Position numbers and translations under genes: made by a program
The notes under the pieces: model-generated
Seen by the model: the letters and a program-made list of their open reading frames with translations, nothing else
Database searches by the model: none
Told to the model about the DNA's origin: nothing
Part shown: positions 15,205-28,394 of the stretch, piece by piece
Position numbering within the stretch: the first letter of the stretch is position 1
Layout of the letters: each line of letters opens with the position of its first letter
Origin: Escherichia coli
Lineage (GTDB): Bacteria > Pseudomonadota > Gammaproteobacteria > Enterobacterales > Enterobacteriaceae
NCBI RefSeq assembly: GCF_003334405.1
Contig: NZ_QOWM01000001.1
Strand: one strand, 5' to 3'
Length of the DNA stretch: 64,000 bases

Positions 15205-15225
15205 GCCTGATACGTCGCATCAGGC
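15205..15225. repeat. REP-like palindromic element between convergent alkA and dgcE
   Basis: GCCTGATACGTCGCATCAGGC: palindrome of the GCCTGATGCGACGC REP family. Confidence 0.6.
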
Positions 15226-15242
15226 AATGGGCAAACGCTCCC

Positions 15243-18200
15243 TCAGTTAATCGCGAAATAACTGCTATTCACCAGCAAATCCAGCGGTTGGGCATCGGCA
15301 ATCACATCACCATAAATCAGATCGACGCCGATGCCAGAAAGCGTATCCATCACTAAGGGTAAAACGACTGGCCCGGCGATGGTTTTCATCCCGAGTCGCT
15401 GAGCGTGCCCCTGAATAATCGTAATCAGCATCTCATCCATCAAATTACCCTGCACGTTGGCGCATAACTCACCATCAAGTAGCAGGTAATCTGCCATATT
15501 CGCTTTCAGCGAGTTGAAGATTTGCAGATCGCGGCCCACCTGGCTGAGCACTATCCGACATCCCGCCAGCCGCAGTTTTTGCACGCTTACTGCGTGATCT
15601 AAAATCGCTTCAGCCGGAATAATCAGATGTAATAACCGTGGTGGTAGAGGGCTATTTTCCAGCTGCTCAAGCAGATCATTCACCAGCGTGGCGCTACTCA
15701 AACCGGCAACGGAAAGAGGGAGGGCGATGCTTATGCCTTTACTGGCAACCGCTTTTGCGGCCTGCTGGAAAAATTCGTGGAATACCCGTCGGTCAAGAGC
15801 ATGGCTAAGTGCCGGATCGCTGAAGCTACGACGAAATTTTTGTTCATCAATAATCTCGCCTTCGCAACTCCAGAGCTTAAGTGAAATCAGCCACAAATTA
15901 CGCGCTTCCGGGATCCGCGGCGAAGCGACACCGTGGGCGATCATCATCAACTGATTCTCTTTAATCATCCGCCACTGTTCATCAAGCGACATCGCCGCCC
16001 GTTCGCTATGTGCGGCAGCTTGCTGTGGTTCGTAAACCGTCACCCGGCCCCGTCCACCATTTTTGGAGGCATAACAGGCGATATCAGCCTGCGACATCAC
16101 TTCTGCCGCCTGATGATTGTTGTCATCAATCAAGGTAATCCCGGCACTGGCACCTACCCGATGCACACGGCCTTCCCATATAAAGTGATAATCATTCACG
16201 GCACTGATAATGCGTGTAGCGATAAAACGCGCACTTTCGATATTACAGTCTGGCAACAGTAGACCAAATTCGTCACCACCGAGTCGCGCCAGCACGTCGC
16301 TGGAGCGCAGCATACTCAGCATCAACGACGCCAGTTCGCGCAGTAAAGCGTCACCCGCCGCATGCCCGGCGCTGTCATTCACCGCTTTAAAGCGATCAAG
16401 ATCGATAAACACCAGGGCATGTCGCTGATGTGTACTGTTTACCGTTTGCAGCAGGATACGCAGTTGTTTCTCAAAACTGGCGCGGTTGGCGAGATGCGTC
16501 AGTGCATCATGGGAGGCGCTGTAGCTCAGCTGGCGCAGCATTTTGCGTGATTCGGTAACGTCCTGAATCACCAGAACCGAACCAATATTGCTGCCGTCCA
16601 GAGTACTTAACGGCGTAATACTGTAATGCACGTCGTAACTGCCGCCGCTCCGACAGTGCAACACCACATCTTGTTCGATCGCGGAACGTGAGGTGTCGGC
16701 ACTGTAAATGTTCTCCATTAATGGTCCGTTGTCGCCAAAAGTAATATGCAACACCGTCAGGAGCGGAACACCTAACGCTTCTTCCTGCGTCCAGCCGCTC
16801 ATCTTCTCCGCCACTGGATTCATAAAGGTAATTTTCATCGCCATATCAATACAGACCACGGCTTCACCGATGGAATCAAGCGTAATGTGCAGGCGCTCTT
16901 TTTCCTGAAACAATGCCTCGTTAAGCTGTTTAACCTCGGTCATATCCATATTAATGCCGAGCAGGCGTTCGACTTCGCCTTCTTTATTCAGTACCCGGTT
17001 GGCGAGGGCGCGGATATGGCGAATACCGTCTTTTACGGTAATGCGAAATTCCAGCTTAAAGGGCGAGCGTGATTGCAACGAATCACGAATCACTTTTTCG
17101 GCATGCTGGCGATCTTCCGGCAGCACGCACTCGTACCACACCTGCCAGTTCGGTTTGATATGCGGAGGAATTTCATACAGCTCGAACATCCGCTTATCCC
17201 AGCTAAAAATATTCGGCTTCAGCTCCCACTCCCAGATGCCAATCCCGCCCGCTTCGTTAGCCAGCGTGATGCGCTCCATCAGTTGCTGATTCACCTGTTC
17301 GGTGCGTTTTAGCTCGTTAATGTCTTCAATCTGAGCGATAAAATAGAGCGGCGTGCCATCCGTGTGGCGCACCAGTGAGACGGCAAGCAACGCCCAGACA
17401 ACATCGCCATTGCGGTTGTAGTAGCGTTTTTCCATTGAATAGGTGTTTATTTCACCGCTTATCAGCTTTTCAACCTGTTGGAGATCTTTATTGAGATCCT
17501 CCGGCCAGGTCAGTTGCTGAAAGGTGAGTCCGCGCAGCTCTTCCTGACTGTACCCGAGAAACTGGCAGAGCGCTTTGTTGGTTTGCAGCCATTGTCCCTC
17601 GGTGCCCACTAACGCCATACCGATAGCGGAATATTCCATGGCGTTCCGAAAACGGGTTTCGCTTTCGGAAATGTGTTTGCGTTCCGCACGAAAGGCATAC
17701 ATCACCATCGTCATGATGTTGGCGGGCAGCAGGATCAGCAAAAACGGTAGCCACGGCATATGGCTCATCAGGTATGTACGCGGCGTAGCAAGCAGGGAGG
17801 GATCCGCGGCCATCATCAGCGACACCATCATCACCGTGGTAAGGAAGATCAAAAAGGCTTCCATTCGTGGCAGGCGCACGGCGCTCCACATCAACAGCAC
17901 AATAATGAAAGTAAAAGGCCACGGCAGATACAGCATCGAAAGCCAGCTTAACGTCAGTGTGATGGCTAACGTGAGCAGCGACTCAAAAAGCAACCGTGGG
18001 TTGCGATGGCGCAGCAGATAGTGTGGTTTAAATAACAATCCCAGCGGCACCAGTGCCAGAGCGCCGATGGATTCTGACAGTACCCATATCAAAAATGCCC
18101 TGAGAGGATCGTCTCCGGGCGTCAGCAGGACAACCAGAACACCCCCTAGCAGAGGCGGAACAATGGCGCTGCCGAATGCCAGACGCAGCCAGTCAGCCAG

Positions 18201-26173: not shown

Positions 26174-28336
26174 ATGACAGAAAAAGTAAAACAACATGCC
26201 GCTCCGGTAACGGGCAGTGATGAAATCGATATTGGTCGCCTGGTCGGCACCGTCATTGAAGCGCGCTGGTGGGTGATTGGCATCACCGCTGTATTTGCCC
26301 TCTGTGCCGTGGTTTACACCTTCTTCGCCACGCCGATTTATAGTGCCGACGCACTGGTACAAATCGAGCAAAACAGCGGCAATTCGTTAGTGCAGGACAT
26401 TGGTTCGGCATTAGCCAACAAACCGCCTGCATCGGACGCCGAGATCCAGTTGATTCGTTCGCGTCTGGTGCTTGGTAAAACGGTGGACGATCTCGACCTC
26501 GATATTGCGGTGAGCAAAAACACGTTCCCGATTTTCGGTGCGGGCTGGGATCGTTTGATGGGACGTCAGAACGAGACGGTGAAAGTGACCACCTTTAACC
26601 GCCCGAAAGAGATGGCGGACCAGGTGTTTACGCTTAATGTGCTGGACAATAAAAACTACACCCTGAGCAGTGATGGCGGCTTTAGCGCCCGTGGGCAAGC
26701 GGGCCAGATGCTGAAAAAAGAAGGCGTCACGCTGATGGTTGAAGCCATTCACGCCCGCCCGGGCAGTGAGTTTACCGTCACCAAATACTCCACGTTGGGG
26801 ATGATCAACCAACTGCAAAACAGCCTGACGGTAACGGAGAACGGCAAAGACGCTGGCGTACTGAGCCTGACTTATACCGGTGAAGATCGCGAACAGATCC
26901 GCGACATTCTTAACAGTATCGCTCGTAACTATCAGGAACAAAATATTGAGCGCAAATCGGCGGAAGCGTCGAAAAGCCTCGCCTTCCTCGCGCAACAGTT
27001 ACCGGAAGTACGTAGCCGCCTTGATGTTGCCGAAAACAAACTGAATGCCTTCCGTCAGGATAAAGATTCTGTTGATCTGCCGCTGGAAGCAAAAGCGGTG
27101 CTCGATTCGATGGTGAACATCGACGCGCAGTTGAACGAACTGACCTTTAAAGAAGCGGAAATCTCCAAGCTGTACACCAAAGTTCACCCGGCGTACCGCA
27201 CGCTGCTGGAGAAACGGCAGGCGCTGGAAGACGAAAAAGCCAAACTTAACGGTCGCGTAACGGCGATGCCGAAAACCCAGCAGGAAATTGTCCGTCTGAC
27301 CCGCGATGTCGAGTCTGGTCAACAGGTCTATATGCAACTGCTGAATAAAGAGCAGGAGCTGAAAATCACCGAAGCCAGCACCGTCGGCGATGTGCGCATT
27401 GTTGACCCGGCAATCACCCAGCCTGGCGTGCTAAAACCGAAGAAAGGGCTGATTATCCTCGGCGCGATTATCCTCGGCCTGATGCTCTCTATCGTGGGTG
27501 TGCTGCTGCGCTCGTTGTTTAATCGCGGTATCGAAAGCCCACAGGTGCTGGAAGAACACGGAATCAGCGTCTATGCCAGCATCCCGCTGTCGGAGTGGCA
27601 GAAAGCGCGCGATAGCGTCAAAACTATCAAAGGGATTAAACGCTATAAACAGAGCCAGCTACTGGCGGTGGGGAATCCAACCGATCTGGCGATTGAAGCC
27701 ATCCGTAGTCTGCGTACCAGTTTGCACTTCGCGATGATGCAGGCGCAGAACAATGTGTTGATGATGACCGGGGTTAGCCCGTCAATCGGTAAAACCTTTG
27801 TCTGCGCCAACCTGGCGGCGGTGATCAGTCAGACCAATAAACGGGTGTTGTTGATCGACTGCGATATGCGCAAAGGCTACACCCACGAGCTGTTGGGCAC
27901 CAATAACGTCAATGGCCTGTCGGAAATTCTGATTGGTCAGGGCGATATTACTACCGCTGCTAAACCGACCTCTATTGCCAAATTTGACCTGATCCCGCGC
28001 GGTCAGGTGCCGCCAAATCCTTCTGAACTGTTGATGAGCGAACGCTTTGCCGAACTGGTGAACTGGGGGAGTAAAAACTACGACCTGGTGTTGATTGATA
28101 CGCCGCCGATTCTGGCAGTGACCGATGCGGCAATTGTTGGTCGTCATGTCGGAACCACGTTAATGGTGGCGCGTTATGCGGTCAACACATTGAAAGAAGT
28201 GGAAACCAGTCTGAGCCGCTTTGAGCAAAACGGTATTCCGGTGAAAGGGGTGATTCTGAACTCCATCTTCCGCCGCGCCAGCGCGTATCAGGATTATGGC
28301 TATTACGAATACGAATATAAGTCGGATGCGAAATAA
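26174..28336 (+). CDS. wzc: Tyrosine autokinase / polysaccharide co-polymerase Wzc
   Basis: ORF track starts at an upstream ATG overlapping wzb; trimmed to ATG 26174 (MTEKVKQHAAPV), 720 aa; Walker A GVSPSIGKT; Tyr-rich C-terminal tail YQDYGYYEYEYKSDAK. Confidence 0.9.
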   Translation: MTEKVKQHAAPVTGSDEIDIGRLVGTVIEARWWVIGITAVFALCAVVYTFFATPIYSADALVQIEQNSGNSLVQDIGSALANKPPASDAEIQLIRSRLVLGKTVDDLDLDIAVSKNTFPIFGAGWDRLMGRQNETVKVTTFNRPKEMADQVFTLNVLDNKNYTLSSDGGFSARGQAGQMLKKEGVTLMVEAIHARPGSEFTVTKYSTLGMINQLQNSLTVTENGKDAGVLSLTYTGEDREQIRDILNSIARNYQEQNIERKSAEASKSLAFLAQQLPEVRSRLDVAENKLNAFRQDKDSVDLPLEAKAVLDSMVNIDAQLNELTFKEAEISKLYTKVHPAYRTLLEKRQALEDEKAKLNGRVTAMPKTQQEIVRLTRDVESGQQVYMQLLNKEQELKITEASTVGDVRIVDPAITQPGVLKPKKGLIILGAIILGLMLSIVGVLLRSLFNRGIESPQVLEEHGISVYASIPLSEWQKARDSVKTIKGIKRYKQSQLLAVGNPTDLAIEAIRSLRTSLHFAMMQAQNNVLMMTGVSPSIGKTFVCANLAAVISQTNKRVLLIDCDMRKGYTHELLGTNNVNGLSEILIGQGDITTAAKPTSIAKFDLIPRGQVPPNPSELLMSERFAELVNWGSKNYDLVLIDTPPILAVTDAAIVGRHVGTTLMVARYAVNTLKEVETSLSRFEQNGIPVKGVILNSIFRRASAYQDYGYYEYEYKSDAK

Positions 28337-28364
28337 CGACGCCTGCATTCGCACCGCCCCGTAG

Positions 28365-28394
28365 GCCGGATAAGCCGCTCACGCCGCATCCGGC
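28365..28394. repeat. REP palindromic element between wzc and wcaA
   Basis: GCCGGATAAGCCGCTCACGCCGCATCCGGC inverted repeat. Confidence 0.65.

Follow-up and report, generated by a model that had tools for sequence, protein, structure and literature searches.

Three palindromes between alkA and wcaA of an Escherichia coli chromosome are copies of the known REP family, one of them a broken remnant

Location of the palindromes and their gene context

The window analyzed here is a 64-kb stretch of an E. coli chromosome (contig NZ_QOWM01000001.1), which runs in the orientation opposite to that of K-12 and in which the gene order is mdtABCD ... yegD, alkA (+), dgcE (−), udk, dcd, asmA (+), yegH (−), wza, wzb, wzc, wcaA ... 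his. Three of its spacers each hold a palindrome of the repetitive extragenic palindrome (REP) type. Site 1 (15205 to 15225, GCCTGATACGTCGCATCAGGC) lies where alkA (+, stop codon at 15202 to 15204) converges with dgcE (−, stop codon at 15243 to 15245). Site 2 (22092 to 22124, GCCTGATAAGACGCGTAAAGCGTCGCATCAGGC) lies between the convergent genes asmA (+, stop codon at 22065 to 22067) and yegH (−, stop codon at 22341 to 22343). Site 3 (28365 to 28394, GCCGGATAAGCCGCTCACGCCGCATCCGGC) separates the tandem genes wzc (stop codon at 28334 to 28336) and wcaA (start at 28429) in the colanic-acid operon, whose leader is marked by a JUMPstart element recognized with Rfam upstream of wza (24366 to 24404). 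Each palindrome is directly preceded on its 5' side by the tetranucleotide GTAG, at 15201 to 15204, 22088 to 22091, and 28361 to 28364, respectively. With this GTAG included, the elements occupy 15201 to 15225, 22088 to 22124 (beginning 20 nt past the asmA stop codon), and 28361 to 28394, all on the + strand.

The initial annotation had placed the three palindromes and their neighboring genes correctly, leaving yegH and the GTAG unmentioned. It had also put them exactly at gene ends, which describes site 1, where the stem begins 0 nt past the alkA stop codon (8 nt in K-12) and 17 nt from that of dgcE, but not sites 2 and 3, where the gaps are 24 nt (asmA) and 28 nt (wzc). The placement is extragenic and 3' throughout, with two convergent spacers and one tandem spacer, although the GTAG of site 1 coincides with the final 4 nt of alkA.

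The palindromes belong to the E. coli REP family

Exact matches (13/13) to the REP head GCCKGATGCGRCG occur in the window at these three sites only, and in a single orientation. When up to one mismatch was allowed, there were 6 matches against 0.57 expected, and 0 of 100 shuffles reached 6; this enrichment rules out chance palindromes. At all three sites, GTAG is followed by a lower stem of the form GCC(T/G)GAT...ATC(A/C)GGC, the head being read on the complementary strand. E. coli REPs are imperfect palindromes of types y (35 nt), z1 (29 nt), and z2 (37 nt), with a 5' GTAG and a conserved AA-GC mismatch bulge that is needed for the activity of the transposase TnpA_REP (PMC8266576). Site 2, at 37 nt, has the length of a z2 unit, and site 3, at 34 nt, comes close to the published 35 nt of a y unit. 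Both retain the AA/GC mismatch, as GAT-AA-GACGC...GCGTC-GC-ATC at site 2 and as GAT-AA-GCCG...CGCC-GC-ATC at site 3. Site 1 differs in being a remnant, 25 nt long, that has lost its loop and upper stem; A...GC residues remain only within its 7-nt loop and form no bulge.

We also compared the three units with the REP units of an unrelated locus, the REP array between wzxC and wcaK of strain TUM11356, and found base matches of 35/37 for site 2, 32/34 for site 3, and 25/25 for site 1. The site 2 unit has at least 40 matching places per genome in every one of 5,426 complete E. coli genomes. K-12 carries the same elements at the same three junctions. Sites 1, 2, and 3 share with other E. coli REPs the GTAG, the lower stem, the extragenic 3' position, the orthologous K-12 position, and a high copy number. 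By position they would be K-12 REP147, REP146, and REP145, numbers that we inferred from the K-12 REP144 (wzxC/wcaK) and REP148 (pphC/yegJ) given in a supplement and not from annotation; the K-12 RefSeq feature table has no repeat_region rows for this stretch. A generic inverted-repeat finder left the REPs outside its top 25 hits, since their stems are interrupted, and a pattern search was used instead. Rfam scans at gathering thresholds of the window and of three related loci returned no family at the REP sites, which is uninformative, as REPs are not an Rfam family.

Taken together, these results place all three palindromes in the E. coli REP family, also called palindromic units, as genuine copies, of which two are intact and one is a broken remnant. 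Each site holds a single unit, which rules out a bacterial interspersed mosaic element (BIME) at these positions in the window. The family assignment of the initial annotation was therefore right for all three sites, and so was its remark that they are individually unremarkable: these are known elements, ordinary in kind, and nothing about the finding is new. Its significance is small, because REPs are the longest-known E. coli repeat family and these copies sit at K-12 positions. The REPIN/RAYT systems of Pseudomonas are elements of the same class, in which a GTAG-tagged palindrome goes with a cognate single-copy Y1 HUH transposase; they differ in their REP sequence families and RAYT group, and in E. 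coli the palindrome is imperfect and contains a bulge.

On both strands, a palindrome inside udk (19311 to 19331, GCCTGATGCGCCGCATCAAGC) is one mismatch away from the REP head. Since it lies in coding sequence and has neither GTAG nor the tail motif, we set it aside as a chance match.

A decayed z2 unit that ends alkA

The site 1 remnant is of z2 type and consists of GTAG followed by GCCTGAT-ACGTCGC-ATCAGGC; its sequence can be written GTAGGCCTGATA^CGTCGCATCAGGC, where the caret marks the junction left by the lost apex. All 25 of its bases align to a z2 unit of the unrelated locus across one internal gap of 11 nt. Alignment with the long form of the junction in K-12, O157:H7, and four other strains identified two deletions. 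The first removed the 11-nt z2 apex AGACGCGTTAG, that is, the upper stem and loop, and the second took out about 50 nt, among them the y partner and the stop codon that alkA had used originally. Because that stop codon is gone, alkA (open reading frame 14347 to 15204) reads on and stops at the TAG (15202 to 15204) inside the REP tetranucleotide. The translated C terminus of AlkA is accordingly ...WQPDGTDEL* (285 amino acids) here and ...WQPDEA* (282 amino acids) in K-12, and in strain 503025, which is identical in sequence here, alkA is annotated as an 858-nt coding sequence of 285 codons. The initial annotation had expected the palindromes to help confirm gene boundaries. At site 1 this expectation fails, since the REP overlaps the alkA coding sequence and supplies its stop codon. 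REPs are thus not always marks of gene boundaries; at alkA, the repeat provides the stop codon and the last residues.

The history of this junction can be read from its relatives. No REP is present at the junction in Citrobacter, Kosakonia, and Phytobacter, whose alkA and dgcE overlap or abut at their 3' ends. E. albertii and three other Escherichia lineages have a y+z2 pair, variously decayed. This distribution implies that a BIME was gained in an Escherichia ancestor and that the window allele is derived from it by deletion. A 60-nt junction probe detected the short allele in 2,341 of the 5,426 complete E. coli genomes (about 43%), and it was found on two different right-flank haplotypes. 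Most of the remaining E. coli genomes have the two-REP BIME. The inverse y/z2 pair with a short linker that is characteristic of BIME-2 occurs in K-12, in E. albertii, and in roughly half of E. coli; the window differs from it in that no site is a BIME and the y partner at site 1 is deleted. The junction forms a natural allelic series, from no REP, through a y+z2 BIME 8 nt past the stop codon, to a remnant at 0 nt with an altered AlkA C terminus.

The remnant is weak as a hairpin. Its stem has only 7 to 9 bp (7 bp on the alkA strand), and it folds with −11.5 kcal/mol in the alkA (+) RNA (z −1.7) and −13.3 kcal/mol in the dgcE (−) RNA, with values ranging to −15.8 kcal/mol, compared with −49 kcal/mol for the K-12 BIME. 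It is probably a weak barrier to exonucleases. In vitro, deletion of the loop together with the upper stem abolishes binding by TnpA_REP (PMC8266576); by analogy, the remnant is probably no longer a substrate of that transposase and is likely immobile.

Two other strains carry their own variants of this junction. In the O157:H7 strain F7508, the y REP at alkA/dgcE has a separate 9-nt deletion, and dgcE is annotated as frameshifted (pseudogene). In TUM11356, the alkA BIME joins the wzxC-wcaK BIME array directly, with a total of three z2 and three y units before wcaK. The stretch from dgcE through wzxC, about 28 kb, seems to have been removed here by a deletion or rearrangement between REPs.

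An intact z2 unit between asmA and yegH

Site 2 is a canonical z2 unit, composed of GTAG, a 7-bp lower stem, the AA/GC internal mismatch, a 5-bp upper stem, and a 5-nt loop. It folds with −24.3 / −22.7 kcal/mol (z −3.7 / −4.1), is identical in K-12, and is present with the same spacer in E. albertii. Farther along the spacer, the inverted-repeat finder located a second, non-REP hairpin with a perfect stem of 11 to 12 bp (22224 to 22256). Beyond it, the asmA-sense RNA (+ strand) has a C-rich, G-poor stretch at 22285 to 22444, 161 to 320 nt past the REP, where each of two successive 80-nt windows has a C/G ratio of 1.9, a value exceeding the 95th percentile for the 64-kb window. This stretch is a candidate Rho utilization (rut) site or zone of Rho termination.

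The spacer is variable among strains. In Nissle 1917, all of the sequence between the site 2 REP and yegH is deleted. In O157:H7-type genomes such as Xuzhou21, the whole asmA-yegH spacer, REP included, is replaced by a RelE/ParE toxin and a helix-turn-helix antitoxin. As a separate observation, the asmA stop codon in Xuzhou21 is TAA instead of TAG. A 178-bp segment bounded by CGGGTA direct repeats lies near the yegH end of the spacer (equivalent to about 22315) in E. albertii and some E. coli and is absent from the window and K-12. It had no Rfam match in a gathering-threshold scan, and it was probably lost from the window and K-12 by deletion.

A y unit within the colanic-acid operon

The y unit at site 3 agrees at 32 of 34 bases with the y units of both K-12 and the independent locus. 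A G-to-C change at 28375, absent from K-12 and seven other compared strains, creates a C.C mismatch in the upper stem, by which this copy differs from the E. coli REP types. On the mRNA strand it folds with −18 kcal/mol (z −2.2). Like REP325 (yjdM-yjdN), it lies between tandem genes of one operon; REP325, however, is a multi-unit element and site 3 is a single y unit. In alternative alleles of the wzc-wcaA spacer, the right half of a y unit of the window type is fused to an oppositely oriented REP of another subtype (GTAGGTCGGATAAGATGCGTCAGCATCGCATCCGAC), and one strain carries both the alternative REP and the window-type y unit. JUMPstart leaders recruit RfaH, which should damp Rho-dependent attenuation in this operon (cps).

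All three positions are structurally polymorphic

The initial annotation had called the palindromes typical of the E. coli core genome. This calls for qualification, since all three positions are structurally polymorphic across strains, with short and long alleles at site 1, replacement of the REP in O157:H7-type genomes at site 2, and alternative REP alleles at site 3. Indels concentrate within the REPs of all three sites; the three spacers are indel hot spots and useful strain markers. Such polymorphism is known BIME behavior, as described in PMC3333891, which cites Bachellier 1997. The gene for the REP transposase, rayT, lies outside the window, and its K-12 position (247.6 kb) is far from this region. 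It was present in 3,575 of the 5,426 E. coli genomes, whereas REP copies occur in all of them. These REPs are dispensable and vary in structure from strain to strain.

Transcript ends near the REPs

The initial annotation had proposed that the palindromes act as transcript stabilizers or terminators. No T-run follows any of the three hairpins on either strand, and a terminator scan called none of them; therefore, the hairpins are not intrinsic terminators. For transcript ends, we turned to data sets from K-12. There, the hairpin equivalent to 22224 to 22256 of the window (K-12 2139565 to 2139606) is listed as a SEnd-seq bidirectional terminator (row 174, "asmA:yegH:dcd") with an empty REP column, and a Term-seq 3' end at 2139607(+) lies 4 nt beyond it. 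The asmA/yegH terminator mapped there is thus a neighboring non-REP hairpin, and annotation should not treat a REP-like palindrome past a stop codon as a terminator. Among the rows of the K-12 SEnd-seq bidirectional terminators examined, none for alkA/dgcE appears between 2139565 and 2167264. Mapping with bicyclomycin (Adams et al. 2021) placed Rho-dependent regions at 2139476(−), some 226 nt beyond the REP on the asmA strand (score 7.7, P = 1e-18), and at 2146686(+), at the distal end of the BIME on the dgcE strand (score 6.8, P = 8e-7).

These features resemble those of the protective 3' stem-loops of Rho-terminated mRNAs (Peters 2012; Dar & Sorek 2018), which likewise are stable hairpins without a U-tract just past a stop codon, with Rho regions and a C-rich tract downstream. 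In the published model, Rho terminates transcription downstream, and exonucleases trim the RNA back to a stem-loop or REP, which sets the 3' end (PMC6061677). REP325 has been described as both a partial Rho-dependent terminator and an mRNA stabilizer, with genome-wide expression biases around REPs (bioRxiv 10.64898/2026.03.23.713779). Stabilization, as the initial annotation had it, is consistent with this model and with the K-12 Rho maps; intrinsic termination is not, and a partial, Rho-linked attenuation is possible.

Proposed origin and role

We consider it highly probable, at roughly 85%, that the three palindromes are REP-family copies dispersed by RayT that serve as 3' hairpins protecting mRNA ends after Rho release farther downstream, that they are not intrinsic terminators, and that site 1 has decayed. 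REPs are nonautonomous, GTAG-tagged hairpins spread on single-stranded DNA by the HUH tyrosine transposase RayT (TnpA_REP), with copies persisting in 3' untranslated spacers. The alkA/dgcE junction would have received a y+z2 BIME in an ancestral Escherichia; later, this lineage would have lost both the z2 apex and the y unit, leaving alkA to end on the REP TAG. When transcribed within 3' untranslated regions, the REPs would be passed by RNA polymerase, which Rho would release farther downstream. Polynucleotide phosphorylase (PNPase) and RNase II would then trim the RNA back to the REP hairpin, which would set and stabilize the steady-state 3' end of the upstream mRNA, and the hairpin may also give a partial, context-dependent drop in read-through. 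Sites 2 and 3 most likely combine 3'-end protection with some context-dependent attenuation.

Several observations weigh against this assignment of a role. K-12 Term-seq (Adams et al. 2021), which served as a proxy for the term-seq check named in the initial annotation, lists no 3' end at any of the three REPs. The only Term-seq end listed in the three spacers is the one at the non-REP hairpin, and in this the REPs differ from the protective stem-loops, since no 3' end is mapped to them in the tables examined and the asmA/yegH end lies at their neighbor. The Rho regions were mapped with 800-nt windows, which makes their positions coarse, and all of the experimental data come from K-12, which differs from the window at site 1. 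Genome-wide, mRNAs with a terminal REP do not have longer half-lives (bioRxiv 10.64898/2026.03.23.713779). In the same 2026 preprint, the cps operon is barely expressed (DESeq2 base means of 42 for wzc and 19 for wcaA) and there is no upstream bias per nucleotide; such low wzc/wcaA counts do not allow an effect of site 3 to be judged. Finally, the three elements are missing or altered in many strains, which fits near-neutral passengers equally well.

The first alternative to weigh is that the REPs are near-neutral relics of selfish DNA with no meaningful effect on neighboring genes, above all the site 1 remnant. All three sites vary or lack the element among strains, with no sign that it is required: O157-type genomes do without the site 2 REP, the outgroups have overlapping alkA/dgcE ends and no REP, and rayT is found in just the 3,575 genomes given above while REPs are found in all. 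The lack of a half-life effect genome-wide (bioRxiv 10.64898/2026.03.23.713779) and the 7- to 9-bp remnant hairpin also agree with it. However, the sequence and place of the site 2 REP have been preserved since before E. coli and E. albertii split, and any stable 3' hairpin impedes PNPase and RNase II (PMC6061677). On balance, such near-neutrality seems possible but not probable to us.

A second alternative concerns site 1, where the effect could be mainly translational, with a REP hairpin within 15 nt of the alkA stop codon stalling terminating ribosomes and lowering AlkA by the Liang-Rudd-Deutscher mechanism. The stem at 0 nt here, and at 8 nt in K-12, is within the distance at which REPs (<16 nt away from stop codons) are reported to stall ribosomes and down-regulate translation, according to Liang et al. 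2015 as relayed in PMC12306157. Against this, the remnant hairpin is weak on the alkA strand (7 bp, −11.5 kcal/mol, z −1.7), translating ribosomes unwind hairpins of this size, and the other three stop codons, at 17 to 28 nt from their stems, are beyond the reported range. We therefore regard a mainly translational role as unlikely and stalling by the 7-bp hairpin at alkA here as doubtful. A broader proposal, that the alkA/dgcE alleles set strain-specific levels of AlkA and DgcE through REP-dependent ribosome stalling and 3'-end protection, is more speculative still. The junction offers a ready natural series for effects of REPs on expression, and its one testable, mildly interesting point is the translation of alkA.

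A main role at the level of DNA, through binding of gyrase, integration host factor (IHF), or DNA polymerase I (Pol I), or as recombination hot spots that shape the chromosome, appears very unlikely. BIMEs have been published as binding sites for gyrase, IHF, and Pol I and as a source of polymorphism (PMC3333891), and both the REP-to-REP junction joining alkA to wcaK in TUM11356 and the clustering of indels could be cited in its favor. Nevertheless, gyrase and IHF binding was described for multi-unit BIME-2 and BIME-1 (PMC3333891), whereas the window has single units and no L linker; no role in chromosome compaction and no REP-REP contacts were found (bioRxiv 10.64898/2026.03.23.713779); and recombination at repeats follows from their being repeated and is not itself a function. 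That the hairpins instead act as intrinsic, possibly bidirectional terminators ending alkA/dgcE, asmA/yegH, and wzc transcription is highly improbable: the location of GC-rich hairpins past stop codons, in two cases where genes converge, the folding energies of −18 to −24 kcal/mol at sites 2 and 3, and the 78 K-12 REPs that overlap SEnd-seq bidirectional terminators (bioRxiv 10.64898/2026.03.23.713779) speak for it, but the missing T-runs and terminator calls, the different hairpin mapped as the K-12 asmA/yegH terminator, the lack of an alkA/dgcE entry among the SEnd-seq rows examined, the bicyclomycin-sensitive regions downstream of both convergent REPs, and the position of site 3 inside an operon that needs read-through to wcaA and beyond all speak against it.

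Other elements in the window

Some further palindromes and RNA elements were seen in the window. In the pphC/yegJ spacer, a hairpin at 10188 to 10217 (TGGCGGTTGAA...TTCAACCGCCA) is identical to the K-12 sequence named "REP148" and does not match the y/z REP consensus. The wzxC-wcaK spacer (43226 to 43296) is without the 186-bp BIME array (REP144) found in K-12 and TUM11356, and only a short TTTTAGGCTACGG motif is left there. At 63699 to 63728, a degenerate REP-like palindrome without GTAG (GCCGGATGCGACA...CGCATCCGC; −14.9 / −18.9 kcal/mol, z about −5 / −4) adjoins a hairpin with a T-run (63664 to 63698) that matches the K-12 bidirectional terminator between wzzB and hisI. The Rfam matches of the window (7810 to 8615, 24366 to 24404, 38791 to 38840, and 48526 to 48564) comprise three SIB antitoxin RNAs by ibs toxin genes, JUMPstart at wza and at the O-antigen cluster, and an algC RNA motif.

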